Of a stretch of DNA of 64,000 nucleotides, positions 19,278 through 46,830 are shown one piece after another (the stretch's first letter is position 1; every line of letters starts with the position of its first letter). The notes below the pieces were generated by a model. The model had not been told where the DNA came from. It saw only the letters and a list, made by a program, of their open reading frames with translations, and did no database searches. Made by a program: the position numbers and the translations under genes. This DNA is from Verrucomicrobia bacterium UBA6982 (GTDB taxonomy: Bacteria; Verrucomicrobiota; Kiritimatiellia; RFP12; UBA3636), in assembly GCA_002448475.1 (NCBI GenBank), contig DJYI01000139.1, positions 19,732 through 83,731 of the forward strand. The letters run 5' to 3'.

Positions 19278-19312
19278 TTTTATGTCCGCTCCCGTCTTCT
19301 TCCGCACACGAG

Positions 19313-20449
19313 ATGACTACCATGAGTTTGGCAAGTGACATTTCAATCAATAATGGACAGCCAATGGGAGGCCCTTCCCAGCTGGATGCCACGAGTCGGG
19401 ATGTCAACACACACATTTTTGGAATTGATATACTACGAATCGTAGCCATGCTAATGGTCATTTCCCTGCACATTCTTGAACATGGTAGAGCCTTTGACAG
19501 TCTAGGATCAAGCAATTGGGTCAACAAGCTTGCGCGATGTTTTCGCGCCGAACACTTGTGTGCCGTAGACTTGTTTATGGCGACTACCGGATGGCTCCTA
19601 GTAAAGAAACCGTTTCGTCTCAAAAGATTGTCCGAACTAGCAATTCAAGTTTTCTCCATTTCACTAATCATCCGGATTGTTGCTCTTGTTTTTTTTGAAC
19701 AAAGGGTTTCGTGGTTGTCATTTTTCGCGGATTCCTGGTATTGGAATTGTTACATAACCATTATCCTGCTCTCCCCTATTATCAATATCGGATTGCAAGG
19801 ACTCCATTCCGCATGGAAGAAACAATCCGGATGGATTCTTCTCGCATGTCTTGCCGCATCAATCTATCTCTTACCATTCAAAGTGGAAAAATCATCCCCA
19901 GGATACAGTGTTGTTTGGATGCTGGTATGCTATCTGTTTGGCGCTTGGAGTCGACTGTCTATTGGGATTATTCGGAATTCTGCTACTCGTTGGACCATTG
20001 AAGCCATCGCCTTGTTGCTCCCCATTCTTGCCGTAGGAATTTCATATGGGCTCCTACTGATTGGAGTGAAGGCGTTTTCCCTCGCCGAGCACTATCATTC
20101 CCCACTGATTTTAGGATGTGCCCTTTGTCATTTGCTTTTTTTCACAAGCATTCCAATCACTCGGCTTCCGAAGTTACTCCGTTTGGCAGCAGACGTCTCA
20201 TTTGGTGTCTACCTGATACATGAGAACCCTATTGCTCGAGTCTGGTACCTGAACGATCGGTTCAGTTGCCTTGAAACAAGCTCGTTCTTGGATTTCGTTG
20301 TTTGTATCTGGACTGCTGCGATAATCATCTATCTGTGCTGTGCTGTTTTGGAATTAATTCGGTTTCTCCTTTTCAAACTGTTAGGGCGGACATTATCTGC
20401 GCTCAAGCAATCCTTCCAACCAACAAATCGCTGCTTGCAAACCAACTGA
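19313..20449 (+). CDS. Acyltransferase family 3 membrane O-acyltransferase (paralog 1 of 5)
   Basis: GIDILRIVAMLMVISLHI (the AT3 N-terminal signature) and a multi-TM, Phe/Leu-rich body. It sits in a low-GC segment. The start is the ATG at 19313. Confidence 0.7.
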   Translation: MTTMSLASDISINNGQPMGGPSQLDATSRDVNTHIFGIDILRIVAMLMVISLHILEHGRAFDSLGSSNWVNKLARCFRAEHLCAVDLFMATTGWLLVKKPFRLKRLSELAIQVFSISLIIRIVALVFFEQRVSWLSFFADSWYWNCYITIILLSPIINIGLQGLHSAWKKQSGWILLACLAASIYLLPFKVEKSSPGYSVVWMLVCYLFGAWSRLSIGIIRNSATRWTIEAIALLLPILAVGISYGLLLIGVKAFSLAEHYHSPLILGCALCHLLFFTSIPITRLPKLLRLAADVSFGVYLIHENPIARVWYLNDRFSCLETSSFLDFVVCIWTAAIIIYLCCAVLELIRFLLFKLLGRTLSALKQSFQPTNRCLQTN

Positions 20450-21869: not shown

Positions 21870-23437
21870 GACTCCGTTTCAACACCGCAGGCCCCTGCAT
21901 CCCCGGACGGCACTACATGCTTCCGGCGCTGGATCGACTTCCCGAGGTCCGCCGCCTCGTCGAGGACGAGGACTACTTCGTCGTCCACGCCCCGCGCCAG
22001 ACCGGCAAGACCACGGCGCTCAACGCCCTCGTCGATGAAATCAACGCCGCGGGCGACAAGGTTGCGCTCTACTGCTCCCTGGAAACGCTCCAGAATGCGG
22101 CCGACCCCGCCCACAGCGCCGAGGCCATCTGCGGGCTGCTTCTCTTCAACGCCCGCCAGACGCTTCCCGACCTGTTTCCCCAGCCCCCGAAGGATGACCG
22201 TGTCCGGGAATCGGGCGGTCTGTATGCGGCGGAGACCATTGCCGTCCGCGAGACGCTTTCCTCCATGGCCCGACAAGCCGCGAAGCCGCTCGTCGTGTTC
22301 TTCGACGAGGCGGACTGCCTCGCCGGGCAGGTGCTCGTCTCCTTCCTTCGCCAGCTTCGCGACGGATATGTCAACCGGACCCGCATTCCCTTTCCCGCAT
22401 CCATCGCGCTTGTCGGCATGCTCGACGTGCGGGACTACAAGGCCCAGATTCGCCCCGACGGCGAGTCGCTCGGACAGATCAGCCCGTTCAACATCATCGC
22501 GGAAGACATCCTGCTTCGCTCCTTCACCGACGCGGAAGTCCGGGCCCTCTACGCGCAGCACACCGAGGCGACGGGCCAGACCTTTGCGCCCGACGCCGTC
22601 GACAAGGCGATGGACCTGACGCGCGGCCAGCCCTGGCTCGTCAACGCCCTCGCCCGGGAATGCGTGGAAAAGATCCACCGGCTCGACTACTCCGCCCCGA
22701 TCACGGCCGAGGATGTCGAAACGGCGAAGGAGTCCATCATCCGCCGCCGCGACACGCACGTGGACAGCCTCATGGAGCGCCTTCGCGAACCACGGGTGCG
22801 GCGCATCGTCGAACCGGTCATCCTTGGGGAAGACCGCGTCGCGTCCGTGAACGACGAAGACTACCGCTTCGTCCTCGACCTGGGGCTGCTGCGCGAAGAT
22901 CGGGGTGCGCTCGTGCCTGCGAACCGGATGTACGCGGAAATCATCGGACGCTATCTCACCCGCGACGTGCAGACGGACATGTTGCAGTCCGTTCCGCAGA
23001 CACCCTGGGCCACGCCGGACGGACTGGACATGCCCGGCCTCATGGCGGCATTCCAGGCGTTCTGGCGCGAAAACAGCGGTGCCGACAAGAGGGTCTGCGA
23101 TTACCGGGAGGCGACCCCTCATCTGATGCTCATGGCGTTCCTGCAGCGCGTTTTGAACGGCGGAGGGCGCATCGTGCGCGAGATGGCCCTCGGTTCGCGC
23201 CGGCTCGACCTCTGCGTCGAATACCGAGGCCGCCGCTACGCCGTCGAGGTCAAGACCTCGAAGAACTTCGCGGGGGAGAAATCGTATGCCCAGCTCGCCG
23301 GCTACCTCGACACCCTCGGCCTCCCGGAGGGCTGGATGGCCGTGTTCGACACCGGTTCCGACAAGCCGTGGAACGAAAAGCTGTACCGCCGCGATGTCCC
23401 CTTCGCGGGAAAGACAATTCATATCGTGGGGCTATAA
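21866..23437 (+). CDS. AAA-like-domain ATPase (PF14516-like N-terminus) with a C-terminal PD-(D/E)XK-like region
   Basis: FNTAGPCIPGRHYMLP...DYFVVHAPRQTGKTTAL fits the AAA_35-like N-terminus and Walker A. The C-terminus ...RRLDLCVEYRGRRYAVEVKTSKN... looks like a restriction-endonuclease-like fold. The ATG at 21866 overlaps the GT2 stop as ATGA. The ORF's upstream 195 codons overlap the GT2 gene and are not expected to be translated. Confidence 0.6.
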   Translation: MRLRFNTAGPCIPGRHYMLPALDRLPEVRRLVEDEDYFVVHAPRQTGKTTALNALVDEINAAGDKVALYCSLETLQNAADPAHSAEAICGLLLFNARQTLPDLFPQPPKDDRVRESGGLYAAETIAVRETLSSMARQAAKPLVVFFDEADCLAGQVLVSFLRQLRDGYVNRTRIPFPASIALVGMLDVRDYKAQIRPDGESLGQISPFNIIAEDILLRSFTDAEVRALYAQHTEATGQTFAPDAVDKAMDLTRGQPWLVNALARECVEKIHRLDYSAPITAEDVETAKESIIRRRDTHVDSLMERLREPRVRRIVEPVILGEDRVASVNDEDYRFVLDLGLLREDRGALVPANRMYAEIIGRYLTRDVQTDMLQSVPQTPWATPDGLDMPGLMAAFQAFWRENSGADKRVCDYREATPHLMLMAFLQRVLNGGGRIVREMALGSRRLDLCVEYRGRRYAVEVKTSKNFAGEKSYAQLAGYLDTLGLPEGWMAVFDTGSDKPWNEKLYRRDVPFAGKTIHIVGL

Positions 23438-23462
23438 GCCAAACACGAAATTGATCACAACC

Positions 23463-24587
23463 GTGAACGCTCCTTCGCACTCTGCCGTCGCTTTTCATCG
23501 GAATTCGAGTCTCGAACTCCTCCGAATCCTCTGCATCCTGCTGATCCTCGCCAATCACTATTCGGTTCTCGGCGGCATTCCGGCACGGGGTTGGCGGGAA
23601 CTGACATGGGGATACTTCTTCGTCCAGTCCATTGGCATGTTCGGTCGAACCGCTTGTTCCGTTTTCGTCCTAATCTCGGGATACTACCTTTCGACGGGAG
23701 TCAAACCTGGCCATTGGAAGAAAGTCATCCCGCTTGCTGCGGAAGCCGTTTTCTATTCTTCCGTCGCCTTCTTCGTTCTATGCGCGCTTGGGTTTCGGAT
23801 GTTCTCGCCGAAAGGGCTCATCCTTGCGTTTGTTCCGTTTTTCGGGCGCAACATCTGGTTTGTGACGAACTATCTCGTCTTCTGGCTCGCCATCCCGTTT
23901 TTGAACCCGATGGTCGCCTCATTGACAAAACGCCAGCACGAAGGGATTCTCGCGTTCTTCGGGGTGTTCTGGTGCATTCTGCCGACGTTCTCGAGCAAAG
24001 CGCTTTCCTTCGGGTGGACCTTCGGAGAACTGGATTTCTTTCTCGTCATGTATCTCGTCGGCGCCTACCTGCGCCGGTTCTCCCCCCATGAACGCTACCG
24101 GAACCGCTGGAACGGCTTTGCCGCGCTCCTGTTCTTCGTCCTCATGATCCTGTCCGTGGCTGGAATGGACTTGCTCGGACTATGGCTTAGGAAGGATGCA
24201 CTCGTCTCCCATGCCGTCCATTTCCTTTCGTTCTATTCCGTCCTTTCCGTCCCTCTCGCCGTGTTCTCGTTCTGTTTTTTCTCCCGGCTCTCGTTTTTGA
24301 ACCACACCGTTGACCGGATCGCGAAATCGGTTCTCGGCATCTACCTTCTCCACATGCAGCTCACACATCTCGATGGCAGAAGATATCCCCGAATGCCCTT
24401 CATGTCGACGACCCGTATCTCCACGCCTTCGCCAAAATCTCCCTGCTGTTTTTCTTCTGTCTTGCCGTTGATTTGTGTCGCCATTATACCGTGGGACATT
24501 TGGGACGAATTCTCTTGCGCAAGTTTCGATTGGCCTGACTATTTCCCGCAACAACCGACATGGACAACTCCCACGACAACAGAATAG
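23463..24587 (+). CDS. Acyltransferase family 3 membrane O-acyltransferase (paralog 2)
   Basis: ...FHRNSSLELLRILCILLILANHYS... and a multi-TM body. There is no in-frame ATG after the upstream stop. Candidate starts are the GTG at 23463 or the TTG at 23451. Confidence 0.6.
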   Translation: MNAPSHSAVAFHRNSSLELLRILCILLILANHYSVLGGIPARGWRELTWGYFFVQSIGMFGRTACSVFVLISGYYLSTGVKPGHWKKVIPLAAEAVFYSSVAFFVLCALGFRMFSPKGLILAFVPFFGRNIWFVTNYLVFWLAIPFLNPMVASLTKRQHEGILAFFGVFWCILPTFSSKALSFGWTFGELDFFLVMYLVGAYLRRFSPHERYRNRWNGFAALLFFVLMILSVAGMDLLGLWLRKDALVSHAVHFLSFYSVLSVPLAVFSFCFFSRLSFLNHTVDRIAKSVLGIYLLHMQLTHLDGRRYPRMPFMSTTRISTPSPKSPCCFSSVLPLICVAIIPWDIWDEFSCASFDWPDYFPQQPTWTTPTTTE

Positions 24588-26440
24588 ACTTCTGGGCAGA
24601 AACCTGGATCGGAGCCGTAGTGCTGATCCTCCTCTCCTGTTCGTTCTTCAGCATCTTTTCCCATCTTCGCTTCGGCGCCTGGATCGGCGGCGGCGCCGCC
24701 ATTCTTTGGACCGCTCTCCGCATCCGCCGCGCTGGCCGTTCCGTCTTCTCCGTTCCCCGCTTCCACGGAATCGGCTGGGGCATTCCGGTTCTGTTCGCGC
24801 TTTGCCTCATTTCGCTCCTGGCCGGACCGCACTGCTTCCTCGACACCTACAGCTACCGCCTTCCGCAGATGTTCTTCTGGCTACAGGAGGGCCATCCATG
24901 GTCCGTGCCTGGGGTGGACATGCGCATCAACCAGATGCCCCACGTCTGGCCGATGCTCTCCGCCGCCTTCTACCTTCCCCTCGGCGAACGGGCCCTCGCG
25001 CTGCCCAACTTCATCGGACTGCTGTTTCTGTCCGCCCTGTTCCGCAAATGGGCCGCCCCAGCCGATGGCCCGAACCCGAAGTCCGACGCCATCGCCCTCG
25101 TCTTCCTCTCCGCGCCCATCTTCCTGATGGGAGCCTCGACGAACGACAATGTCGTCTGCTGCTGCGCCTTTCTCGCTCTTTCGTACCACTTTGCGGCCCG
25201 TCCCGAGACCTCTCTGAGGACCGTCGCCCTCTCCGCTCTCTCCTTTGCGCTCGCCTGCGGCATCAAGCCCCAGTATCTCGCCCTCGCCCCGGTCTGGGCC
25301 GCCTGGTTTTTCTTCGCCCCCTCCCGTCCGTGGCGGACGATCCGGCTCCGGCCGCTCCTCCTACTCGTCCCGCTGCTCGTCCTCTGCTCACCTGTCCCGA
25401 CCCTCGCCGTCAACCGGATCTGCTGGGGTAGTTTCACGCACCCCCGCGTGGAGGAGCGGAACGAGTCCGGGGAAAAGACGATCGCCGTCCCGTCGGAATC
25501 CGAAGCGGACGAGGCTGCGGCGACCGACGGCGAACGGGCAAAACCGTCTGGTGACCGCTTCCGCGGTGAACACGCCTTTTTCACGCTTGGCACGCAACTC
25601 TTCGCCCCCCCCTTCAACCCGCTCTTCGGGATCATGAACCGATGGGTCCAGTCCGGAGGCGATTTCGTCTCGCGGCAGTTCAAGAGAAACGGCATTCGGT
25701 TCCAGCCGCTCGTCATTCCCGAAGTGGCCTCGCTGGAACTGTTCGTTTCCTTCGCGCTCGTCCTCGGCTTGGCGCTCGCTCTCCGGCACCAGGAATTCCA
25801 TCCGGGATTTGTCCTCCCCGTCTTCGCCTTGACAGTTCTAGCTGTCATCTACACCAAAGGTGGCACCCTCGGCCGTTCCTTCTCCGGATTCTTTCTCCTC
25901 TTGTTCCCGGTAGCGATTCCTGCCCTCGCCCGGCTGCCGCGACGCCTCCTCTCCGCCTACTCCGGACTCTGCCTTCTCATTGGAGTCGCCGTCGTCGTCA
26001 CCGACCCGTCGCGTCCGTTGCTTCCTCTCCGTTTCCTTTCCACAAAACTCGCCAACCGCCCCGCGGTCGCCGCGAAACTCGCCGACTACTCCCACTTCTC
26101 CGAGCGACAATTCGCCACCCGTGCCCTTCTGGCCGACATCCCAGCGACCGTAAAAAAAATTGGCATCATCCTGGAGAAAAACTCCCCCTTCGCCGAAATC
26201 TGGCTTCAACGCCCCGGGGTTCACGTCGTTCCCTATGCAGCTCTTCCCGCCCCATCCCGACTCGTCCGTGACGACATCCGCTTTCTCTTCTTCAAGGCTT
26301 CTCATTCCTCGTCCCAGGGAGAACTGACGGACGCCCCCCTCTCCGCCAATTCAGGCATCAAGCTCTTTGCGACCCTCCCCTATGTCTCCTTCACGCACAA
26401 AGGGCCTGAACCATGGCATGTGCTGTATCGAGACCCATGA
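24560..26440 (+). CDS. Polytopic membrane protein (626 aa), candidate GT-C-type glycosyltransferase or polymer-modifying protein
   Basis: About 10-12 predicted TM segments at the N-terminus, with a loop ...LDTYSYRLPQMFFWLQEG... and a C-terminal soluble domain. The family was not recognised. Confidence 0.45.
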   Translation: MDNSHDNRIDFWAETWIGAVVLILLSCSFFSIFSHLRFGAWIGGGAAILWTALRIRRAGRSVFSVPRFHGIGWGIPVLFALCLISLLAGPHCFLDTYSYRLPQMFFWLQEGHPWSVPGVDMRINQMPHVWPMLSAAFYLPLGERALALPNFIGLLFLSALFRKWAAPADGPNPKSDAIALVFLSAPIFLMGASTNDNVVCCCAFLALSYHFAARPETSLRTVALSALSFALACGIKPQYLALAPVWAAWFFFAPSRPWRTIRLRPLLLLVPLLVLCSPVPTLAVNRICWGSFTHPRVEERNESGEKTIAVPSESEADEAAATDGERAKPSGDRFRGEHAFFTLGTQLFAPPFNPLFGIMNRWVQSGGDFVSRQFKRNGIRFQPLVIPEVASLELFVSFALVLGLALALRHQEFHPGFVLPVFALTVLAVIYTKGGTLGRSFSGFFLLLFPVAIPALARLPRRLLSAYSGLCLLIGVAVVVTDPSRPLLPLRFLSTKLANRPAVAAKLADYSHFSERQFATRALLADIPATVKKIGIILEKNSPFAEIWLQRPGVHVVPYAALPAPSRLVRDDIRFLFFKASHSSSQGELTDAPLSANSGIKLFATLPYVSFTHKGPEPWHVLYRDP

Positions 26441-26458: not shown

Positions 26459-28246
26459 ATGAAACCAAAATTCACCCGCCCCTTTGTTTTTTCAATGGCG
26501 CTTCTTGTTGTTTGCGGCGTCCTGTTGTCTCTTTCAAGCTTCCGTGTTTCCGATTCGTTGCTCTGCTTTTCAATTCGCGCCGAACAGTTTTTCCATTTGC
26601 CATCAAACCGGGCTCCCGCCGGATTTCAGTTTTTGAGATTGCTCCGCGCTTCCATTTTTGCGATTCTGTCATGTCTTGTATTTTGGGCAACCCGCAAATC
26701 TTTGAATGAATCCGGACAAACATGCAACTGGCTGGCCAGAGCCATCATTTGCCTAGGTTTTTTCTTGCGATTTGATCTTTGGGCAACCAAGGACTTCTGG
26801 TGCGACACATGGGCGTTGAAGACCGCCATCCAAACGCATTCCGCACTTGAAATCCTGACCGGGCGGTTGGGATTCAACCAGGCGGCGCCTGTCGGTTTTT
26901 CGTTGCTCGAAAAGGCCGTTGGCGTTGTTTCCGGTTATTCCGGAACGGCGATGACTCTTCCGCTGTTGCTGGCCGGATGCGCGTCATTGGCGGCCTTGTC
27001 CCGCGTAACGGAGCGGTGCGGTTCGGTGCGCTGCAAAATGGTGTCGCTGGTCATGCTTTTCGTTTTTGCCGTGAACCCTTCTTTCGTGTATTACAGTGCG
27101 GAACTCAAGCCGTATGGCTTTGATCTGCTTGTTTCGGCACTCGCAGTCTTGCTTGTGATCGATTTCCAGAATGGAGAATCGAGCTGGAAGAAACTTGTCT
27201 GTTTTTCAGCTTTTGCGCCGTGGTTCTCCTTGCCTTCGTTTTTCGTCCTTTTTTCCCTTTATGCCGCATTGGCCTTTTTTTTCTTCTCGGATCACGCGCG
27301 GATTCGATGTCTGGTTCTCTGTGCGGCCATTTCAGGGGCATTGGCGATATTCCCGCTAATCCATGCATTCGCGACCATGCCGGCGGCCATGGACAATGTC
27401 CAAGACTTGTTCGCTCCGGTCACATGGTCCAAAGGAGCTCTTCTATGGTGGACGGGGCGGCTTCTTCATTTTTTCCGCGGTCCGGCATATTTCGGTTTCA
27501 CCTCATGGAGCCTGTTCTCTCCTTTTGCATTGCTGTCATTGATTCCCCTTGGATTGTTTTCGCTCGGGGTGTGGCAGCGAAGACGAGACCCCCTGGTTTG
27601 GATGTCGTTGCTTTGCATCGCTTTCACCTTTTTCGCATCGGCCTGTCACTATTGGAAGATCAATCCGGGTACAAGTTTGACCGGCGGACGCCTTATTCTC
27701 TTTTTGACTCCGTTCGCGTATCTGCCGCTTGCTAGCGGGTTGCACTGGATGGCCACGAAGAATAAAGCCGCCGGAGCCGCGACATGCGCTTTTGCCTTGG
27801 TTTCGGCTTGCTTGTGGTTTTTCCAGCAGACACCCATTTCCTGTCCCATGAACGACATAGCTACACGGGTTACCGTTCAACGAAAGCCGGGAGATATTAT
27901 TCTTTGCGACGAAATCATGCTGCTTGCTCTCATTTCCGAAAACGCCGAGCGGACAATCAAGGCGTCTGAGGACATCTTGATGGTGTATTCCAGCCCGTCA
28001 TATGATGACGTCGAGTTCGCCAGTCTGGACCATTATCTGCCACGACATCGAAGAAAACTGGATTCTGAACGAGAACACGTAGTTTCCCAAATGCTGTCTT
28101 TTTTTTCGGAGGGCGGGCATGCCAGTCTGCTCGTCTACCCGACGCACAAACGAAGTGCCGATATGGCGAATGGCCTTTCTGTGAACTTTTCGAACGACAT
28201 AATTGATGCAGTAATCCGCCCATGGGTCGCATTTGTCCGCCTTTAA
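26459..28246 (+). CDS. Polytopic membrane protein (595 aa) with the same architecture as the upstream gene, a probable paralog
   Basis: A multi-TM N-terminus with a ...DLWATKDFWCDTWALK... loop and a C-terminal soluble domain. It sits in a lower-GC segment. Confidence 0.45.
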   Translation: MKPKFTRPFVFSMALLVVCGVLLSLSSFRVSDSLLCFSIRAEQFFHLPSNRAPAGFQFLRLLRASIFAILSCLVFWATRKSLNESGQTCNWLARAIICLGFFLRFDLWATKDFWCDTWALKTAIQTHSALEILTGRLGFNQAAPVGFSLLEKAVGVVSGYSGTAMTLPLLLAGCASLAALSRVTERCGSVRCKMVSLVMLFVFAVNPSFVYYSAELKPYGFDLLVSALAVLLVIDFQNGESSWKKLVCFSAFAPWFSLPSFFVLFSLYAALAFFFFSDHARIRCLVLCAAISGALAIFPLIHAFATMPAAMDNVQDLFAPVTWSKGALLWWTGRLLHFFRGPAYFGFTSWSLFSPFALLSLIPLGLFSLGVWQRRRDPLVWMSLLCIAFTFFASACHYWKINPGTSLTGGRLILFLTPFAYLPLASGLHWMATKNKAAGAATCAFALVSACLWFFQQTPISCPMNDIATRVTVQRKPGDIILCDEIMLLALISENAERTIKASEDILMVYSSPSYDDVEFASLDHYLPRHRRKLDSEREHVVSQMLSFFSEGGHASLLVYPTHKRSADMANGLSVNFSNDIIDAVIRPWVAFVRL

Positions 28247-30094: not shown

Positions 30095-31651
30095 TTAGGC
30101 GGCAGACCGTCTCACCCTGAACAAACGACGAATCCACGCCACGGCGAATCGCCGTTCTTCGTTGTCAAGAACAAACAGTATCGACCCGGTAGCAAGGCTA
30201 GTCGTTGTCGCGAGGCCAACTGCCAAAATACGCCAGACGGACGCCGGCGCCGCGCCCTGCACGGCGAATCCGGCGAGAAAGGCGAGGACGACGACGGCAA
30301 GGAGCGGAGCCACGATCCGGAAACACCAATGCCGCAGGGACATCCCGCAAAGCCGCCAGCCGAAGATGGCCCGTTCCAGCGAGAGCAGCGAGTAGCTGAT
30401 GACGAACGACAGCCCGATGCCGAGAGCCCCCCAACCCGCCTTGACGAACGCATAGACGAAGACGAGCGTCGACAGGGATGTGATGCCCAGGACGAAATTG
30501 AAAAGCCCGATCCGACCCTTTGCGGCAACCATCAGATGCTGTCCGATTCCGAGCTTGTGGCAGATCAACGCACACAGCAGGCAACGGCAGAGCGTCGCCG
30601 TCCCGTCGGGCGGCGTCTCGAGCCAGATGCGGAGAACCTCATCGATCTCCACCACGAGCGGAACCGCGAAAAGGGCAGTGAGGAGCACGGCGAACTTTCC
30701 ACTCCGGAACGCCAGGGCAACGGCGCTGCCGCTATTCTTCGCCCCTTCGGCCGTCGTAACGGCCGGAGCCATCGCGCCGAGAAGCGCAGAGGTGAACGAC
30801 CCCGTATGTGCCGAAATGTGCAATGTGATGCTGTAGGACGCATTCATCGCGGGTCCGAAGAAACGGTTGATGATAAACGCGGTTCCGTTCTTGCGAGCGA
30901 TGTCCCCTCCGCAGCTGAACAACTCCCAGAACGCGTATCGGAAAAGGGGTAGGATCCGCGCGCGGTCGAACATCATGGACGGTCGAACTCGACAATCGCC
31001 GAATGTCCGCCAAGCGCGAAACATCTGGGCGAGCTGGACTGCGATTCCCGGAATCACCAGCATCATCGAATAGCAGACGAGTCGGTCTCCCTGCACGAAG
31101 AGCAGGCGGTACGCAAGCCCCAGCAGGAGCAGCGCCTGAAAAACACCCCAAAAGGCCAGTTCAGAAATGAGCTGTTGCGCCTTGTACATTGAGATGAATG
31201 GCACCGATGCAACCGTGCAGAACAAGCTTGCCATCGACAATCGAAACACCCAAATGCATGCATCAACTCGATCAGGCGGAATCACGAACCAATGGCGGAT
31301 GGCATAGGAGCCGACCGGATAGCCGATAGCGACTAGGACCGCAGGCAGGATGAGATGGATCGAGAGTGCCGCGTTGAACCACCGCTGAACATCTTCGCAT
31401 TCCTCACGCCAGCTTTTTACGCCCGACTTGCCGATCGCATATGCGAGAAACCGCGAGACAGCCAACCCTAGTACATTGTTGAAAACGGAAACGAAAGCGA
31501 TGAAACTTCCGACAAGCGCGAAAAGCCCCAAATCGCGCTCTCCGAGCGCACGAAACACCCATCTGCTCGTAAAGAGAGCGACAAACAGGACGAAAACGGA
31601 TCGCCCATAAGTCGTAATTGTGTTGACAATGATTCGCCGCGTTGCTGTCAT
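30095..31651 (-). CDS. wzx: Wzx-type polysaccharide/oligosaccharide flippase (MOP superfamily)
   Basis: 518 aa with about 14 TM segments, resembling the polysaccharide biosynthesis protein family. It is the last gene of the long minus-strand operon. Confidence 0.7.
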   Translation of the reverse strand: MTATRRIIVNTITTYGRSVFVLFVALFTSRWVFRALGERDLGLFALVGSFIAFVSVFNNVLGLAVSRFLAYAIGKSGVKSWREECEDVQRWFNAALSIHLILPAVLVAIGYPVGSYAIRHWFVIPPDRVDACIWVFRLSMASLFCTVASVPFISMYKAQQLISELAFWGVFQALLLLGLAYRLLFVQGDRLVCYSMMLVIPGIAVQLAQMFRAWRTFGDCRVRPSMMFDRARILPLFRYAFWELFSCGGDIARKNGTAFIINRFFGPAMNASYSITLHISAHTGSFTSALLGAMAPAVTTAEGAKNSGSAVALAFRSGKFAVLLTALFAVPLVVEIDEVLRIWLETPPDGTATLCRCLLCALICHKLGIGQHLMVAAKGRIGLFNFVLGITSLSTLVFVYAFVKAGWGALGIGLSFVISYSLLSLERAIFGWRLCGMSLRHWCFRIVAPLLAVVVLAFLAGFAVQGAAPASVWRILAVGLATTTSLATGSILFVLDNEERRFAVAWIRRLFRVRRSAA

Positions 31652-32979
31652 CGATGTTCGATTGTATGTCTGTTCACACGCATTTGGGATGAAATGGCCA
31701 CAGATACTCTTTCAGCAATCAACTCGAGATGACGCCCAGATTCAATCATTCGAGAAAAAACAAGGAGCTCATCGCGAATTCCCTCTCCGTCGAGAGGATA
31801 AAAGTACCGACGATTGTCAGCCGGATTTTCAAACCGAATTTCAAAATAGTCCGTCTTCCACCATGGTGCCGGCACCACTATGTACCCTTTCGTTCCGGCA
31901 ATGACCAGTTCTCCTTCCGACTTGACGCCTTTCGCCACTGTGGCCGACCCAACAGCCGTAGGGTAAACGAAATCCACTTTTGAAAACACATCGAAATCTT
32001 TCGTGCCAGACGCAAGAAAAGAAGTTTCACATCTGTCTTTCCAATCTGTCCCAAGAATTTGGAAAATGGGAAGCAATGCCGTTGGCCCCCATGCCGTACG
32101 ACTGTTCCATTGTGAACCAGCCATCGTCTTGATTCCACTCGGCATCAAACTTGTACAGGTTGCAGAAACGGACACGACACTGCCGATCTTCCCGGATTTT
32201 AAGAGTAGCAGCAACCTGTTATATGCTGTCGAATACGCCGTTTTGATTGCGTCCATTAGCACCAGTCCGCTTTCCTTTGCCAAAGCGAACAACCTTTGGC
32301 AAGACATTTCGTCCAGGGCAACGGGCGACTCAACAAGGACATGCTTTCCTTTGCGAAAAGCCTGCTCAATGCAAACAGCATGATGCCGAGGATGATTTGC
32401 CAAATAGATGGCATCACAATTATCGAGCACTTGTTGATAGTCTTGAACAAGTTGAACACCGTCCTTTTGCGCCGCATTGACAATGTCATTGTGACTTGTT
32501 AGCGCAACCGAAACGGACAATCCGTCAACGAAAGAACTCTCCGCAAATAGTTTGGCTACTATATTTCCGTCTCCGATGAGACCAAGCCGACAAGACTGCC
32601 GTTTTTCTCGAATTACCGTAGAAGAAACCCCTTCCGTTCTCGGAAGATAAATCACGTCGCAGTATTCTTTCAAGTAGTCGAATTTGCCAGTCCAATCAGA
32701 GCCTAAAACGAAGATATCAATTCCAAGTCGTCGAATGTCATCGATTTTTTGTCCCTCGTATTCTTCTACCAGAATTTCATCGGCGAGGCCAAGACGTTGA
32801 ACGCCCTCAATGCGTTCCACAAGGGACTGCCGCGCATTGATTTTTCCGCGAGTCCGATCATAATTGTCGGAAGTCACTCCAACAATGAGGTAGTCGCCAA
32901 GAGCCTTTGCCCGTTCCAACAGCCGTCTATGGCCATAATGAAGAAGGTCGAATGTTCCGTATGTGATTACTTTTTTCAT
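31648..32979 (-). CDS. Bifunctional TagD-like cytidylyltransferase / Gfo-Idh-MocA NAD(P) oxidoreductase fusion, a candidate CDP-alditol (or CDP-glycerol-derived) synthase
   Basis: The N-terminal 130 aa read MKKVITYGTFDLLHYGHRRLLERAKALGDYLIVGVTSD... and are TagD-like with HxGH. The C-terminal ~300 aa start ...CRLGLIGDGNIVAKLFAE... (a Rossmann GxGxxG, Gfo/Idh/MocA-type). It overlaps the wzx start as ATGA. It lies in a low-GC segment. Confidence 0.7.
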   Translation of the reverse strand: MKKVITYGTFDLLHYGHRRLLERAKALGDYLIVGVTSDNYDRTRGKINARQSLVERIEGVQRLGLADEILVEEYEGQKIDDIRRLGIDIFVLGSDWTGKFDYLKEYCDVIYLPRTEGVSSTVIREKRQSCRLGLIGDGNIVAKLFAESSFVDGLSVSVALTSHNDIVNAAQKDGVQLVQDYQQVLDNCDAIYLANHPRHHAVCIEQAFRKGKHVLVESPVALDEMSCQRLFALAKESGLVLMDAIKTAYSTAYNRLLLLLKSGKIGSVVSVSATCTSLMPSGIKTMAGSQWNSRTAWGPTALLPIFQILGTDWKDRCETSFLASGTKDFDVFSKVDFVYPTAVGSATVAKGVKSEGELVIAGTKGYIVVPAPWWKTDYFEIRFENPADNRRYFYPLDGEGIRDELLVFSRMIESGRHLELIAERVSVAISSQMRVNRHTIEHR

Positions 32980-32986
32980 GTGTTTA

Positions 32987-34027
32987 CTACCTTCCTCCGA
33001 ACAGGACGGCGGATGTTTTCGGCATGGTTCTTTTCAACAGTTCCGCAATGGCGAGGGAAACGGCGAACGCGAAGACGGCGACACCCAGATACGCCACCGT
33101 GCTTCTTCCGGGATGCAAATACGCCTTGACGGGGAGAAGAACGAATTTGTGGACAAGGTAAACGCCGAACGAACTGGAAACAAGCCACTCGGGCCATCGA
33201 CTGTCGCCCATCAGGCCCCAAACGCCGTACAGGGTGAACGGAACGCACAGGAAGCCGAGATGCTCCGCCGCCGGAAGCCCCTTCAAGACGAAGAATGCCC
33301 TGAATACAGCCAGACCGATTCCGACAGTCAGCGAAACGACAGGGGGGGGGGGCTGAAATCCACGATTCCTTTCTGTAGCGCAAGGCCGAGCGAAAAAAAA
33401 GAACAGGCCCAGCACAGGAAAGATTCCGACTCGGGCGAATTCTTCCCATTGCCCCGCGTTCGGCAACGGCCAAAACGGACAGACCGCAGCATAAACGACG
33501 AACAAAAGCAGCAGAAACCATCCTCGGAATTTCTTCAGGCACCAGACGAATGCCGGAGACAAGACCACCAGGATGAACAGCGCCCGTACATACCACAGCG
33601 GAGTCAGATAGGGGCATCGAGTGGGCCACAGACCGATTTGCCTCAACGTCGGAAACGTGAACGACACGGTTCTTCCGTGGAGGAGCGAATGGGCGTTCTT
33701 CCAGAGGAAATTCTCCAGCCAGAACAGCGCATTCCAGAGGACAAAGGGAACGAGAAGCGTTCGGACACGTTTGCCTACGGCTTTCCGGTATCCCTTCCCT
33801 TGCAGACTACGCCCCACCATGTAGCCGGACACGGTGAAGAAGAACGGGACTGCGATCTGCGTCACGCCGTTTTCAAGGATTTCCTCCAGCCACCAGCCGG
33901 TCGTTCCGCGCCCGAAATGCGGACGGCAATGGATGATCACCACGAGGAATGCGCATAAAATCCCCATGTTCCTGATTTTGCGGCTCGCCGCCTCGGTCAA
34001 TGTTCCGCGTTCATTCATTCCTAACAT
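32987..34027 (-). CDS. Acyltransferase family 3 membrane O-acyltransferase (paralog 3); carries the poly-C(11) and T8 homopolymers
   Basis: ...[19 protein letters not shown]... is the AT3 N-terminal signature, followed by a multi-TM body. Its 5' end overlaps the aminotransferase 3' end by 8-17 nt. Confidence 0.7.
33342..33352. repeat. Homopolymeric G(11) on the plus strand, which is C(11) on the coding strand and encodes QPPPP inside the acyltransferase-3 gene
   Basis: Counted directly: a-ggggggggggg-c at 33341-33353. A second T8 run on the coding strand (A8 on plus, 33393-33400) lies 40 nt away in the same gene. Confidence 0.9.
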
Positions 34028-35111
34028 ATCCCAAAACGGCCTTCAAGGCGTTGACGAGCGAATCATAATCCGCCTCTGTAAGGCATCCCATGTGTCCGAC
34101 TCGGAACACTTTGTCTTTCAAATCCCCGCCGTTGGGGCAAATCCAGATGCCGTGTTCGTTCTTGAGTTTGAGGAAGATGTCGAATGCGGACATGCCGTTC
34201 GTAGGGTGGAGCGGCGTCACGGCGTTGCTCAGTCTTTCGCTGACGATTTCAAGAGGCAGGTCCGCGATCTTCGAACGGAAGTATACCGCCATCCTCTTCG
34301 CTTTTGCGACCTCTGCGGCGACACCACCTGCCGCATCAATCGCCTTCAACCGCGCATGGATCTGCAACAGCGTCCCGACGGCGGGCGTGAACGGCGTCTG
34401 CCCCCTCACTTGATTCGCAAGAGCGTCTTTCAGGTCGAAGTAAAGGCACTTCGGGTCGTTCCTGGTGACCCGTTCCAGTGCGCGTGGAGAAAGGACGATG
34501 ACGCTCACCCCCGGAGGACACGCTAGGGCCTTCTGCGATCCGGTAATCATGACGTCCGCGCCCAGCGCCGCCATGTCGAAGTCGTCGCACAGGAACGAGC
34601 TGATGTTGTCGACGATCAAAAGCAGGTCGTTTTCCTTGCAAAAATCAGAAATCAGACGCATGTCGTAGTGTACGCCCGTGCTGGTCTCGTGCTTGTTGAC
34701 CAAAAAGGCCGAATAGGCGCTTTTGCCTTCTCCGCGCCTCCGCGTCTCCGCGTTGGACAAATCGTCTATTGTCAGCGCTTTTCCGGTCTCCAGTTTGATT
34801 TCGTCGTGCGGGATGCCGTGGATTTCGCAGATTTTGCAAAAACGGGCGCCAAAACTCCCGCCATTGACGACCAAAGCCCGGTCCTCCGGCGTGAGCAGGT
34901 TCATCGCGGCCGCTTCCATGGAGGCCGTGCCGGACCCCGTGATGAAGACAGCCCGCGACCCTTCGGGGGCGCCGGCGAACTTCAGCATCAGCCGTTCGTT
35001 TTCCAGCATGACGGAGGAAAACTCCGCCGTTCGGAAATAGGGAACCTGTTCGGCCCCGATGGCAAGGACTTCTCCCGGAGACTGGACCGGACCGACGGTG
35101 AAATTGATCAT
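34011..35111 (-). CDS. Class V aminotransferase (AGXT/PhnW/serine-pyruvate aminotransferase family), PLP-dependent
   Basis: [16 protein letters not shown]... has the TPGP-like start, and ...[18 protein letters not shown]... is the family consensus. The ATG at 35111 forms an ATGA overlap with the upstream stop. The ORF's 149 upstream codons overlap the upstream gene and are not expected to be translated. Confidence 0.7.
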
Positions 35112-36814
35112 GGCTTCGATTCCTCTGCAAGGGCTGCGGAAACCTTCTTTTCCAGGTCGCGATAGACGGACAGGCAGAACGGACCGTCCTCGGCCATGTC
35201 CGTGAACACTTCGAGCAGCACCGCGCCTTCCGGTCCTCGGGCGAATTCGGGAAGAACCTTCGAAAGGCTCTTTTCGTCCGTCGCCGAAAGATATTTGAAA
35301 CCGCATTCTTCCGCCCAGGCCCTGGCTGATCGGCCGTGACGGCATCCGATGTGGCGGTCTACCGTCGGCAGGGAATGGCTTGCTGGCGGGATGTGGAATT
35401 CCGCCGCCCCGCGGTTGTTGACCAGGAAAATCCTCACGTCTTTCGCGCGTTCCCGGATGGCCAGGGCGTTCATTCCGTAGAAGAAACTGAGATCGCCGAT
35501 AACGAGAAACGCCCGCCTTCCGCCGGCCACCGCCTGCCCAAGGAACGTTGGCAGGCATCCGTCGATGCCGAATGCGTTGATGTTTCCTGCGACGCGAACT
35601 CCTTCGGCCAGCGGGAAAAACTGCATCAGCCGAACGGCGTTGAGAATGCTCACATGGACGAGCGATTCCGGTGGAATCATGCTGGCCAGCGCCCCGACGG
35701 CGTAAAACTGCCCGTAGGGAAGCGGTGGCAGGACAGCGGCTTTTTCAAGGCGCTTCCAAAGTTTCAGGTAGCCACCCTCCCGCTTTCCGGTGGAGAGTTC
35801 GGACATCCGTTCGAGGAACGTTTCGACCTGGCACTCGAAAACCGCCGTCTGGCTCTTGAACACGTCACGGACAACGCCTTCCGGATCGATCGACCAATGC
35901 TCGAACTCTCCGCGGTGAGCCTTGAAAAGGTCCTTGATCCTTTCCTGGAAATTGGTGCCGAACGTGATGACGATGTCCGGAAGGACTTCTGCGAAGGTTT
36001 TTGACTTCAACCCCTTGCACACCGCCTCCGCCATGACGAACGTTTCCGTGCGGATGTTTGCGAAATGGTCCCCGAGAACAGGGGCGCGGAACCGTTTGCA
36101 GAAAGCTGACAGAGCGCGTTTTTCCGAAGCCGTCCAGCGGTCGCAGGCGCCGGCGATGACGAGGATGCGGCGCGCTTTTTCCAGGCGCTTCGCGAAATGG
36201 TTCCACGTCCGGCCGTCGTTTTCCCCAACCCAATCCACGAACCGATAGTGTATAGCTTTTCTCCCCTGCCCATCCGCGTTCCACATGGCGTTGGTGTCGC
36301 CGACCAGCGGAAGGTTGACATGGACGGGGCCTGGGCGGTGTCTCCGAAGTTCGACAAGGGCTTCGCTCAGCAATCGGGAAAAGTGCCAGACGTCATCTGT
36401 GTCTTTCAGGACGGGCAGACTCACGCTTTTTTTTGTGACAGACGCAAAAACGGCGGGTTGGTCGATCTTTTGCGTTTCCAGCTGATGGAGGACGTAGGGA
36501 CTTCGGTCCGCCGTGATCGCCAAGACGGGAACATGGGCGAAAAAGGCTTCCGTCATGCCGGACAGGTAGTTTGATGCGGCCGTTCCGCTCGTGCAGGACA
36601 ACCCGACAGGTTCGCCCAGTTCCTGAGCCAGCCCCAGTGCGAAGAAGGCTGCGCTGCGTTCATCCACCACGGAATGGCAGACGAAAAACGGATCGGACTC
36701 GACCGCCGTCACGAACGGGATGTTCCGCATGCCCGGAGACAGCACCAGATGGCGGACCCGGTAGTGCTTCAACGCTGAAACGAGGATGTCGATGGCAAGG
36801 GTGTTTGATGTCAT
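35108..36814 (-). CDS. MenD-family ThDP-dependent enzyme (SEPHCHC-synthase-like), possibly recruited to a non-menaquinone role
   Basis: The N-domain [16 protein letters not shown]...[13 protein letters not shown]...[12 protein letters not shown]...[10 protein letters not shown] is closely collinear with E. coli MenD (VRHICIAPGSRSTPL...DERGLGHLALGLA...TSGTAVANL...LTADRPPEL). The C-terminal ThDP motif is ...[12 protein letters not shown]...[14 protein letters not shown]...[11 protein letters not shown]. Confidence 0.65.
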
Positions 36815-36826
36815 GGAGAAGACCTT

Positions 36827-37726
36827 TCAAGTATTGCCAAAGGTAAAACGGCAATCGTCCTGCGTAAGATTACCGCAGCCGGCCGTCACGTAAAGGATGG
36901 ATCCAAGGACCATTCTGCCAAGCGACGATACGAGAACGACGGCGAGGTTCGCAACCTCGCTCTCCGCAATCAAGCGACCGCCCGGCATGCGAGGACGCGC
37001 AAATGATTTTCCTTTATTCGGTCCGAGAAAGGCTTCCGTCGCGGTGGGGCCAGGGGCGATGCCGTTCACGACGATTCCATATGGAGCAAGTGTTTTCGCC
37101 ATTCCAGGAACCAAGCCGCGCAATGCCCACTTCGCGAGATTGTAGGGGGAGTTTGCGGGACGCAGACTCGACGAAGAGCAGACGACGAGAATGTTTCGGT
37201 TCCCGCACTCGTCGTTCCGCGATATCCAGTCCTCTGCCGCACACTGAGAGAGAAAGTAGGCTCCGCGGAGGTTTGTTTCCATCACTTCGTCGAAATCTTC
37301 CGGCAATGTGCTGCCAAATCTGGCAAAATTGAGACTGCCGGCGTTGTTCACCAAAATGTCAATCCCGCGAAGGCCGCAACACGGGAGCGCATTCGCTTCC
37401 CTCCACTTGTCGCGAAACGACTCGACGCTTTTCATCTCCAATGCAATGCCGCAAACTCTATCTTCGGATGCGGATGTAGCACATTGCGCAAGTTCATCGA
37501 CGCGCCGATTCACGGCGTCACGGTTTCTTCCAGTAATGATGACGTTTCCGCCAGCCGACAATATGGCCTTTGCGGTCGCGAGACCGATTCCTCTGGTTCC
37601 ACCCGTGATCAAAGCGGTTCGCCCCGCCAGCAAATCGGAACGGAACGGTGAAATGCCATCGCCTTCAGGGAGGGGAATCGGCATCTGTTCCATCTCGTTC
37701 TCCGGGTTCATCGTGTCCGAGTCCAT
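36827..37726 (-). CDS. SDR-family short-chain dehydrogenase/reductase
   Basis: TGGTRGIGLA (the Rossmann TGxxxGIG motif), NNAG, ...SSSS... and YxxxK-like (PYNLAK). The ATG at 37726 overlaps the upstream stop. The track start at 37732 is a TTG. Confidence 0.75.
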   Translation of the reverse strand: MDSDTMNPENEMEQMPIPLPEGDGISPFRSDLLAGRTALITGGTRGIGLATAKAILSAGGNVIITGRNRDAVNRRVDELAQCATSASEDRVCGIALEMKSVESFRDKWREANALPCCGLRGIDILVNNAGSLNFARFGSTLPEDFDEVMETNLRGAYFLSQCAAEDWISRNDECGNRNILVVCSSSSLRPANSPYNLAKWALRGLVPGMAKTLAPYGIVVNGIAPGPTATEAFLGPNKGKSFARPRMPGGRLIAESEVANLAVVLVSSLGRMVLGSILYVTAGCGNLTQDDCRFTFGNT

Positions 37727-37728
37727 GT

Positions 37729-38826
37729 TCAAAGGCGGTTGAGTGATTCGGAAAGAAAAGCCCGGGACTCATTTCGGACGGCTTCGATCCGCCCGCAGAC
37801 TTCGGCAAAATCCGTCGGCGATTCGTACGCAAAGCCCGTTTCCGCTCTCGGGATGCCGATCCAATCGGCGAGTTCCTCCATTTTCGTATCGCACTGCTCC
37901 CGCGTGAAAACGGAGAACGGTCGCCGGTAGTGGATGGCGAAAATCATTCCGTGGTAGGAATTCGTCACCACGAACTCCGCTTCGCGCACCAGCCCGAGAA
38001 ACTCTTCCACGCCGGCGTCGTATCGCATCTCATGCCCCATTTCGGCATGCGACGCCCGGATGCTGATTTCCACGACCCGCCAGCCGTTCCGTTTTGCCAG
38101 ATCCGACGCGAATGCCGTCATGCGCGGATCGTCACGGCGGGAATAAAGCAACAGGAATGGTTCCTTCTTGTTTGGGGATTTCGCGATCAAGTCATAATCG
38201 GACCGGGCCAAAAGCAGCGTGGGATCGCACACGCGCCGGACGGGCACCTCCGTCGCCGTGCGGACCCGGTCCATCAAAGTCGTTTCCCGCAGACCGATTG
38301 CTTTGAAATTCCGCATTCTGGCGTCGAGAACGGGCAGCTGGTCCGGGCGGAAATGAGGTGTTCCGAAACTCGGCGCATAGGCGACGGACCGCCCCTGCAT
38401 CACGGCGTAATTGGCGTAGTATCCGTCGTCCATTCCGAACTCGTCCGGGCAGAAAATCGTGTCGCTCCCGCAAACGAAACCATCAAGGCCCTCACGTTTC
38501 ATGCAGTCGCCGAAATTCGCGGAGGTATATACGCCGACGGAACGAGGGCAGCATTCCCGGTAGAATCGGTCGAACTTGCCATAATTGACACGGATCGCCG
38601 GCATGGACGCCTCGACCATCCGGCGCGAGGCGTCATCCTTGTCCCACATGTTCCGGAACGGATCGAGCGGGTTCTTGTCCTTGAGGATGTCGGGGCAGTA
38701 ATCGATCAGGACGGGTTTGTTTCCCGTCTTTTCGATGGAACGACAAAGCGCCCAGCTCTGCAACGCCGATCCGTAGTTGGTGAAGTTGCAGTGGATGTTG
38801 TAGCTGATGACACCTAAACGTTTCAT
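37729..38826 (-). CDS. Polysaccharide pyruvyl transferase family protein, copy 2
   Basis: MKRLGVISYNIHCNFTNYGSALQSWAL... and ...VVTNSYHGMIFA... (like the TDSYHG motif) match the PS_pyruv_trans family. Confidence 0.55.
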   Translation of the reverse strand: MKRLGVISYNIHCNFTNYGSALQSWALCRSIEKTGNKPVLIDYCPDILKDKNPLDPFRNMWDKDDASRRMVEASMPAIRVNYGKFDRFYRECCPRSVGVYTSANFGDCMKREGLDGFVCGSDTIFCPDEFGMDDGYYANYAVMQGRSVAYAPSFGTPHFRPDQLPVLDARMRNFKAIGLRETTLMDRVRTATEVPVRRVCDPTLLLARSDYDLIAKSPNKKEPFLLLYSRRDDPRMTAFASDLAKRNGWRVVEISIRASHAEMGHEMRYDAGVEEFLGLVREAEFVVTNSYHGMIFAIHYRRPFSVFTREQCDTKMEELADWIGIPRAETGFAYESPTDFAEVCGRIEAVRNESRAFLSESLNRL

Positions 38827-39746
38827 CGGATGTAGCGATCACTTTTCGCCAATTGTGTGGGTCCGAACTTCCAAGCCACGGCTTTGCAATCGCGATGTTT
38901 CGGAATGCGTTGTTCAACAGGGGGAAGCCTCATATAATTTCCAAAACAAATCCGGAGCGTCTCCTCGACTTGAACTGGAACGGGCGCCAGTCGTCCAGCG
39001 AATGGAATGAATCGCTGTTCAGAAAAAGCTGATGTGGGAAAGAAATCTGGAATCTCGTCAATGCGCAACCCAAAAGCGCCGCAAAAACGACTCTGCCCAA
39101 ACGGGACAGACCGGGCGATTCGTTCGGAAATACGGCAACGGTCACCAAGAGAATCAAAACCCGGGAAGAAGATTCCCGCGCATGCACCAATCAATCGGAC
39201 AAGCCGGTGTCGTAATCCCTTTCCTTTTCCATGTGCCAAAAACGAGATTCGCGCACGAAGCATCCTGCGAAGAAACTTCCGTCGAGTTCGGGACAAACTG
39301 GAATCAGGGTAGCCATCCAAAGGAAAAACATCCACGTAAATCCCATGAGGCAGAGTGTGTCCAAGGCGTTGCTCAACCCGGGAAATCACGCTCCGATCCG
39401 TTTCTTGCACTTTTCCGTAGATCTCTGGCATCTCGGGCGTATTCTTCCAATCGATCCACTTCATGTCAGCCGGAAGTTCCTTCTCCGCAATGCAAACAAA
39501 CCGATCATAGTCTCCCCTCGGCATATGGATGTCCAAATCGTCATCCCAAGGAATAAAGCCTCCATGTCGAATTGCGCCAAGCGCAGAACCATACGCAAGA
39601 AAGAACTGAATCCCATGACGGGAGGCGATTTCCGCAATGGCATCGTAGACTCGAAGCATCGCCTCCCAATGGTCGCGAAGGCCGGGGAAAGAAATCGGTT
39701 GAAATGAATCAGACACATATGTCACATCAGTGTTCCTTTCCAGCAA
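38823..39746 (-). CDS. LicD-family phosphotransferase (transfers phosphocholine, or alditol/glycerol-phosphate from a CDP donor), copy 1
   Basis: ...HGIQFFLAYGSALGAIRHGGFIPWDDDLDIHMPRGDYDRF... is the LicD core, with DDD catalytic residues. The start is uncertain: the track's 39746 is a TTG, and an in-frame ATG at 39659 is an alternative. Confidence 0.7.
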   Translation of the reverse strand: MLERNTDVTYVSDSFQPISFPGLRDHWEAMLRVYDAIAEIASRHGIQFFLAYGSALGAIRHGGFIPWDDDLDIHMPRGDYDRFVCIAEKELPADMKWIDWKNTPEMPEIYGKVQETDRSVISRVEQRLGHTLPHGIYVDVFPLDGYPDSSLSRTRRKFLRRMLRARISFLAHGKGKGLRHRLVRLIGACAGIFFPGFDSLGDRCRISERIARSVPFGQSRFCGAFGLRIDEIPDFFPTSAFSEQRFIPFAGRLAPVPVQVEETLRICFGNYMRLPPVEQRIPKHRDCKAVAWKFGPTQLAKSDRYIR

Positions 39747-45788: not shown

Positions 45789-46826
45789 ATGGAAATCAAA
45801 CACTCGTTCCGGCTCGCCTGGCTTGATGACATCAAGGGATTCGCCATGCTATGCGTGGTGATCCAACACGCCTTTTTGAATCCGCCATGGGGTCGTTACT
45901 TGTTTCTTGGATCAGTCCCTATATTTTTCGTCGCTGCCGGGTTCACGACTACGTCTATGACCTCCGAACAGATTTCAAGAAAAGCAAAACGACTGCTCGT
46001 TCCGTACTTCGTATATGCGGTCGGCCTTGGACTGATCGCCCTCGGTGCTACCTGCTGGAAAAACGGCTCGGGTGCGGACTTCGGCCACCGCATCCTTCTT
46101 CTGCTTTCCGGCATTGCTTATGGAAGACATTCTGTATTCAGAGACGGCAGCGGAATCGGGCTGAATCACTTTGGGATCGCGCCATTATGGTTTCTCCCGG
46201 CTCTTTTTCTTTCGTTTGTCCTGTTGTTCCTCTTCGACAAGTTGCCGAAGTGTCTGCAATTCCCGTATACGATAGGGCTTCTTGCCGGAACGATCCTCGC
46301 AACCCGATTACAAATCTATTTGCCATGGAGCATTGATCTAGCGCCGATCGGAATGTTTCTCCTTGCAACCGGTCGGTTTTTGCGAAAGACGACTGCTCCA
46401 ATTCAAACAGGATTTCCTTTTGTCGATTGTTTTGTATGGCCAGCTTGGGCGTTTCTCGCTCGCACAAATGGTTTTCCGGTTTCGTTTTTCAATGGACAGT
46501 TTGGCTCGCATGGAATGGCAAGCCTCGCCGCTTACGTATTGTTAGCCGTCACTGAATTTGTCCTTCTCGCCAGACTCCTGAACAACACCCACGGAGGGAA
46601 GCTTTTCTTTGTTCCGTTTAGGGCACTCGGGAAGAATTCTCTCGTCTTTCTATGTTTTCAGCTGTTCATCATCAACGCTTGCGAACTGGCATTGGGGAAC
46701 TCGCCGGGGAGTAACATTTCTGTCGGTTTGATCAAAAGTTTGGTCACTATTGTATTCTGCTTGCTCGCTGCGCGTTTGATATTTAGACTTGGAAAAACCG
46801 TCCCTTTCTTCAAATTGCTGGGATAA
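45789..46826 (+). CDS. Acyltransferase family 3 membrane O-acyltransferase (paralog 4)
   Basis: ...LAWLDDIKGFAMLCVVIQHAF... (the AT3 signature) and a multi-TM body. Confidence 0.65.
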   Translation: MEIKHSFRLAWLDDIKGFAMLCVVIQHAFLNPPWGRYLFLGSVPIFFVAAGFTTTSMTSEQISRKAKRLLVPYFVYAVGLGLIALGATCWKNGSGADFGHRILLLLSGIAYGRHSVFRDGSGIGLNHFGIAPLWFLPALFLSFVLLFLFDKLPKCLQFPYTIGLLAGTILATRLQIYLPWSIDLAPIGMFLLATGRFLRKTTAPIQTGFPFVDCFVWPAWAFLARTNGFPVSFFNGQFGSHGMASLAAYVLLAVTEFVLLARLLNNTHGGKLFFVPFRALGKNSLVFLCFQLFIINACELALGNSPGSNISVGLIKSLVTIVFCLLAARLIFRLGKTVPFFKLLG

Positions 46827-46830
46827 TAGC

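Follow-up and report, generated by a model that had tools for sequence, protein, structure and literature searches.

Variation of surface structures by a slipped-strand mechanism is known from Neisseria, Haemophilus and Campylobacter. One of the described systems is oafA of Haemophilus influenzae, a gene for a sugar O-acetyltransferase of the acyltransferase-3 (AT3) class that acts on LOS, and a simple repeat within its coding region can switch the frame; one sequenced strain carries a frameshifted copy and others carry intact ones (PMC9558356). Another is Neisseria pglI, a glycan-modifying gene with an AT3 domain and repeat-mediated phase variation (PMC9833829, PMC5445459), for which 41% of paired carriage isolates had changed (PMC5445459). 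In the Campylobacter phasome, G/C tracts of at least 7 nt occur in capsule, LOS and flagellar glycan genes, and the cut-offs for phasome prediction are at least 7 nt for poly-G/C and at least 10 nt for poly-A/T (PMC6321876). A different phenomenon are compensated or "savior" indels, in which nearby indels of opposite sign in slippery runs leave a short stretch out of frame (review PMC5009743). A full-text literature search returned no paper linking Kiritimatiellae to phase variation.

The gene described here lies in a 64-kb stretch of DNA, referred to below as the window, and carries a run of eleven C residues (C11) on its coding strand. It shares with oafA and pglI the AT3 class, and its run is, as in Campylobacter, a G/C tract inside a glycan-related gene. 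However, oafA carries tetranucleotide repeats and its switching is documented between isolates, whereas the window gene carries a mononucleotide run in which no length variation was observed. In contrast to the frequent changes of pglI, the window tract is altered in none of the five other assemblies that contain it, and while PglI joins the AT3 domain to a fused SGNH domain and acts in a protein glycosylation system, the window protein has just the AT3 domain. In Campylobacter, different strains keep the tracts and their length varies within a strain; relatives of the window lineage lack the tract, and the available data show it at a single length. It is rather the tracts in GT4 glycosyltransferase genes of related loci, which vary from G12 to G19, that look like the Campylobacter kind. 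With savior indels the window allele shares two opposite-sign indels in neighbouring runs, with the difference that its rescue is encoded in the DNA, with no sign of slippage at the RNA or ribosome level. On balance we lean towards the reading that C11 is a recent homopolymer completing a compensated double frameshift, and that it represents a mutational hot spot or incipient contingency site rather than a demonstrated selected switch.

Results

The original prediction placed an 11-nt poly-G/C tract and a nearby T8 run in an AT3 gene, and both are exactly where it had put them. The gene (32987..34027, minus strand, alternative start at 34018) encodes a membrane acyltransferase of 346 aa that matches Pfam Acyl_transf_3 with an E-value of 2.2e-37 and 129.3 bits (cutoff 31), residues 23-328 covering profile positions 9-325 of 326 and thus the whole domain. 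C11 (G11 on the plus strand) occupies 33342..33352 and encodes PPPP in codons 226-229, within the peptide QPPPP; T8 (A8 on the plus strand) occupies 33393..33400 and encodes FFF in codons 210-212. Between them lie 40 nt (33353..33392). No homopolymer in the window other than G11 exceeds 8 nt, and G/C runs of at least 11 nt are expected at 0.13 per 64 kb under an iid model, 0.04 under a first-order Markov model and about 0.001 by extrapolation from the run-length decay of the window itself. The tract is real and unusual. The GC content of 65% assumed in the original prediction is too high: it is 58.7% in the window and 54.7% in the polysaccharide locus.

A strong outlier of this kind may suggest a selected phase-variation switch of polysaccharide O-acylation, in which C11, perhaps together with T8, would act in populations that were sampled mostly in frame. 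We regard this as possible, if rather unlikely. C11 exceeds the poly-G/C cut-off of 7 nt (PMC6321876), T8 stays below the poly-A/T cut-off of 10 nt, and the gene class fits known contingency loci, as had been pointed out, since the AT3 O-acetyltransferase genes oafA (PMC9558356) and pglI (PMC5445459) are phase-variable. Against such a switch, C11 sits at 65% of the gene, away from the 5' end.

All 11 homopolymers of at least 8 nt in the window fall in the polysaccharide locus, between 19689 and 47402, and the other 31 kb contain none. Nine of these 11 are A/T runs of exactly 8 nt, compared with 2.7 expected under a first-order Markov model, and most of them read as T on the coding strand, where they encode FF or FFF in membrane proteins.

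The polysaccharide locus extends over about 32 kb (19.3-51.8 kb) and encodes, besides several GT2 and GT4 glycosyltransferases, two LicD genes, pyruvyl transferases, a Wzy_C protein and a UDP-GlcNAc 2-epimerase, no fewer than five AT3 genes (19274-20449, 23286-24587, 32987-34027, 45789-46826 and 46789-47889), an unusual density of acylation functions. Upstream of the gene studied here lies a class-V aminotransferase gene (34011..35111, minus strand); its stop codon and the start region of the AT3 gene overlap (ATGAATGA). Downstream, after a spacer of 7 nt, follows a gene in which a cytidylyltransferase-like domain is fused to a GFO/IDH/MocA oxidoreductase domain (31648..32979, minus strand), with the motif GGAGGA at 32998-32993, 13 nt 5' of its ATG. 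The next gene had been called wzx; this label is unsupported, because the 518-aa protein (30095-31651, minus strand) is without Pfam or NCBIfam match. Two further ORFs, of 626 aa (24560-26440, plus strand) and 595 aa (26459-28246, plus strand), have no Pfam match either, and the NCBIfam scan of these three proteins gave a single weak LIC_10190-family match for the 626-aa ORF. A 568-aa TPP enzyme (35108-36814, minus strand) scores 253 bits, just above the MenD (SEPHCHC synthase) cutoff of 244, and shares the operon with the aminotransferase (34011-35111), which is PhnW/AepZ-like at a score below cutoff. An SDR, the TagD-like::GFO fusion and a LicD protein (36827-37732, 31648-32979 and 38823-39746) are further members, and no PEP mutase was found among the scanned ORFs; the product of this set would be a CDP-activated substituent. 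A scan of genome contigs returned distant relatives only (at most 35% identity), mostly rumen and gut MAGs labelled Kiritimatiellae or "Verrucomicrobia"; the species of the window itself was not among them. Going by its closest relatives, the organism probably belongs to the Kiritimatiellae of the rumen.

Aligned with 19 and then with 51 homologues, the AT3 protein diverges solely between T8 and C11. The two runs bracket 14-16 codons that are out of frame relative to all relatives. Read in the +1 frame, the 40-nt stretch gives the family sequence, with 12 of 14 residues identical to the homologue P0003, compared with 1 of 14 in the frame in use, and setting the runs in silico to T7/C12 or T7/C9 yields a family-frame protein. 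This makes the window allele a compensated double frameshift, in which QPPPP marks the point at which the frame lost at T8 is regained. This main feature was missed by the earlier reading of the locus. The change of frame has replaced a glycine that is invariant in 51 of 51 homologues (alignment without the window protein) by R214, so that the window protein departs from the GLFYFSLG motif of its subfamily; Y210F is a further change, at a nearly invariant residue. The case illustrates that a compensated frameshift can go unnoticed in an ORF that looks intact, here accepted by gene callers and by a sequence-only reader despite the lost invariant residue.

Comparison with relatives at 74-79% amino acid identity (L003-L006) shows how the two runs arose. 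These relatives carry interrupted runs (TTCTATTTTTCG; CCCCCTCCCC), with TATTTTT at the T site and CCCCCTCCCC or AATCTCCCC at the C site, and at the position of C11 itself GCCCCCTCCCCG or GCAATCTCCCCR is found in relatives. At the T site they read TTC TAT TTT TCG, and the window differs by an A>T substitution, which makes the T run continuous, and by one extra T, which together turn T5 into T8. At the C site the homologue P0002 reads GGC AAGCTTG CCCCCTCCCC GGTC; the window is without 7 of these nucleotides and has a T>C substitution, which leaves exactly C11. The indels of +1 and -7 cancel (net -6 nt), so the ORF stays open, with codons between the runs in a frame unlike that of every homologue. 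Judged from these relatives, T8 and C11 are both lineage-specific. The original prediction had proposed to look for the run in relatives; with interrupted runs throughout this group and PPPP at the site in 0 of 19 aligned homologues, the outcome leans against an evolved switch. Absence of the tract from the closest relatives means that there is no sign of selection to maintain a slippery run there. Moreover, a 7-nt deletion and one substitution suffice to give C11, so that slippage is unnecessary to explain it, which again speaks against a selected switch, while the indel history at both T8 and C11 is a point in its favour.

Tract length among strains was likewise named as a check. T8/C11 is present in 6 of 6 assemblies, the window and five others, and in both alleles found. 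Three of them (L001, ERZ28612941; L002, Logan SRR1222429; L090, ERZ12302820) are 100% identical to the window, L087 (ERZ12302815) is 99.6% and L088 (ERZ28612959) 99.2% identical, and the five encode the exact AT3 protein or a 98% variant. The second allele (P0066) differs from the window allele by 14 nt and has V296G beside the conserved H293. Twelve of the 14 differences fall in a 37-nt patch (33773..33809, minus strand; gene nt 219-255) that looks like a small recombination patch, the second-allele version resembling more distant relatives. Truncated or alternative-frame variants were absent (0) among 65 matches and three cluster members in a collection of about 15 billion proteins, and JGI metagenome contigs gave no match to a DNA pattern that allowed gaps of varying length at T8 and C11, or to a protein-alignment query. 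Invariance in six assemblies and two alleles leans against an evolved switch. It is weak evidence, because these six assemblies, at least 99.2% identical and read as majority sequences, are near-clonal and a consensus hides minority variants; by record names, all six near-identical strains appear to come from one sheep-rumen dataset.

The same assemblies bear on the question of an artefact, in which the true sequence would be T7/C12 and both homopolymers would be miscalled. Errors are frequent in homopolymers, and a +1 error combined with a -1 error would produce exactly such a pattern. However, T8 is a short run that is normally called correctly by Illumina consensus, and two opposite systematic errors would be needed each time. 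The six assemblies, which stem from several datasets and assemblers, are in agreement, and a distinct allele is among them. A sequencing error is unlikely because five other assemblies, made by at least three pipelines as judged by contig naming, share T8/C11. Record names further suggest reads of the sheep-rumen study, whose libraries were PCR-free and sequenced on Illumina HiSeq 2000 in 2x150 format (PMC4158751). We thus consider an artefact highly improbable.

The 117 codons 3' of C11 follow the family frame and keep every conserved residue, and dN/dS of the C-terminal third is 0.23-0.27 against relatives and 0.15-0.24 among relatives, a similarity that argues for a gene without visible decay; dN/dS of the inter-run stretch is unusable, as it is too short and its gap placement ambiguous. 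In an alignment of 52 sequences including the window protein, H33, V60, P61, F63, F64, G68, R87, W145, R148 and R346 are invariant, and the conserved histidine of the first transmembrane helix is thus present along with the other subfamily-invariant residues. The AT3 fold is all-helical with about 10 transmembrane helices (PMC9833829), and the AF2 model of the window protein (pLDDT 92.5, pTM 0.91) is consistent with it, with about ten long helices; a Foldseek search of the model against the PDB gave no significant match (best E-value 0.48). In the model, residues 205-217 form a helix and 218-228 a loop that varies in length and sequence across the family. Confidence drops locally, to a pLDDT of 75 for residues 211-220, compared with 94 in the model of P0002 (93.6 overall). 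The loss of the glycine leaves the activity of the R214 protein uncertain.

These data have to be weighed against a functionally dead gene, whose frame would be open by chance or because its translation aids downstream expression. G214R at a residue invariant in 51 of 51 homologues, Y210F at a nearly invariant one, the local drop in AF2 confidence and, in the second allele, V296G adjoining the conserved H293 all point in that direction, the four other AT3 paralogues of the window could cover the loss, and a syntenic orthologue described below (L091) is plainly frameshifted. In the opposite direction, the 117 family-frame codons past the run keep their conserved residues at a dN/dS of 0.23-0.27, the affected loop is variable across the family, and the second-site rescue has become fixed, which argues for selection on the C-terminal part. 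A dead gene seems improbable to us on these grounds.

Slippage at either run would switch the product, as the original prediction had held for a change of one nucleotide. Loss of one nucleotide (C10 or T7) in silico leads to a stop at 232 aa, 348 nt 5' of the next gene, and gain of one (C12 or T9) to a 350-aa product with an alternative-frame tail that ends at a TGA overlapping the next ATG (ATGA). The expected polar effect on downstream genes would thus hold for the -1 change with its early stop, but not for the +1 change, for which the overlap of TGA and ATG means that coupling would be preserved.

Homopolymers of G or C recur in related polysaccharide loci. L018 has G12 in a GT4 gene adjoining an AT3 homologue that itself contains G8; the G12 run (L018:8529-8540) lies in an interdomain linker (KFMGGGGSPVKL) and is in frame. 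In the Kiritimatiellaeota MAG locus L022, the runs at 4322, 4951 and 7506 comprise G10 within a GT4 gene, another G10 close to the 5' end of a gene of unknown function, and G9 within a GT25 gene; a second such locus, L023, contains G9 within a GT8 gene and one more G10 (3945 and 9404). Tracts in L022 and L023 that are spanned or flanked by a Pfam domain (GT4, GT25, GT8) leave the gene in frame. In L030, from a Prevotella MAG, C9 is found at the 5' end of an AT3 gene (2721). At the site of the G12 run, a GT4 orthologue with 74% identity is split into two ORFs, with G13 in L094 (2374-2386) and G16 in L095 (2374-2389). As the DNA of L094 and L095 shows no other difference over 4373 nt, the length polymorphism is genuine, and a 66% orthologue has G19 at the same site (L096:53-71). 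A second GT4 gene is likewise split at a G13 run (L094:4361-4373), inside which the L095 contig ends. Finally, the AT3 orthologue of L091 lies in synteny (aminotransferase - AT3 - cytidylyltransferase::GFO - LicD) and has a frameshift at G8 (L091:3237-3244), where the intact 85% relative P0006 reads GGGAGGG. This parallels the window, in that a substitution fuses short runs and a +1 change follows; the record name points to the same sheep-rumen dataset.

Two other candidates were set aside. The truncated homologue P0030 is not a frameshift at the T-run site, as unrelated DNA follows the break and no homopolymer is present. A two-colour Illumina poly-G artefact fits the contig-end runs of L016 and L033, and not the internal in-frame run of the window.

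Thus, as far as these sequences can tell, poly-G length change occurs in polysaccharide genes of related organisms. The G9-G12 runs inside GT4, GT25 and GT8 genes, the one GT4 site with G12, G13, G16 and G19, of which G13 and G16 stand in otherwise identical DNA (4373 nt), and the L091 orthologue that is off at G8 all speak for a selected switch. They raise the prior for switching at the window run without testing it. Since lengths at the GT4 site clearly vary, selected poly-G switching may exist in the group.

Discussion

Several features of a contingency locus come together in the window gene, namely the length of the run, its position inside the ORF and the gene class, and two others do not: the run does not vary between the strains compared and is not kept in orthologues. 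A further argument against a selected switch is the history of the allele itself, since a fast-reverting C run should revert simply before a second-site rescue takes hold. We therefore return to the compensated double frameshift with a recently formed C11 as the account that we lean towards. C11 would have been created recently in an accessory AT3 O-acyltransferase gene of the polysaccharide locus, in a lineage that gained one T, in a run joined by A>T, and lost 7 nt, with T>C downstream. The gene would then have passed through a frameshifted state before a second-site indel rescued it, presumably in this order, and in each of the six assemblies the rescued allele is the fixed majority. The enzyme would be made at full length, with the end of the sixth transmembrane helix and the following loop scrambled, and the rescued protein presumably retains residual activity.

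Slippage should be more frequent than usual at C11, so that OFF variants, of 232 aa after a -1 change or 350 aa after a +1 change, probably arise often. In this sense C11 would probably act as a mutational hot spot, perhaps as a contingency site in the making; on/off switching at the run is inferred rather than demonstrated. The family-frame coding potential between the runs is still intact, as would be expected after a recent event, but also of a population in which the family frame remains in use. In a further scheme, T8 and C11 together would form a three-state switch, with a family-type enzyme from T7/C12, an alternative segment from T8/C11 and OFF states from the mixed combinations; we think it very unlikely. 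The T8/C11 state would in that case be a full-length protein with an alternative segment of 14-16 residues, placed at the end of helix 6 and in the loop after it, and altered activity or specificity. Were it true, slippage would toggle the segment between two sequences encoded in overlapping frames, beyond merely turning the gene off. A related and similarly unlikely possibility is that slippage on T8 and C11 at the level of RNA or the ribosome yields some family-frame protein from the T8/C11 allele.

If the run of the window switches, a rumen symbiont of a little-studied phylum would vary the O-acylation of its surface polysaccharide by a slipped-strand mechanism, and phage, host or protozoal grazing would be likely pressures. 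The GT4 runs of related loci (G12, G13, G16 and G19) suggest that the group may possess a repertoire of switchable genes of this kind.
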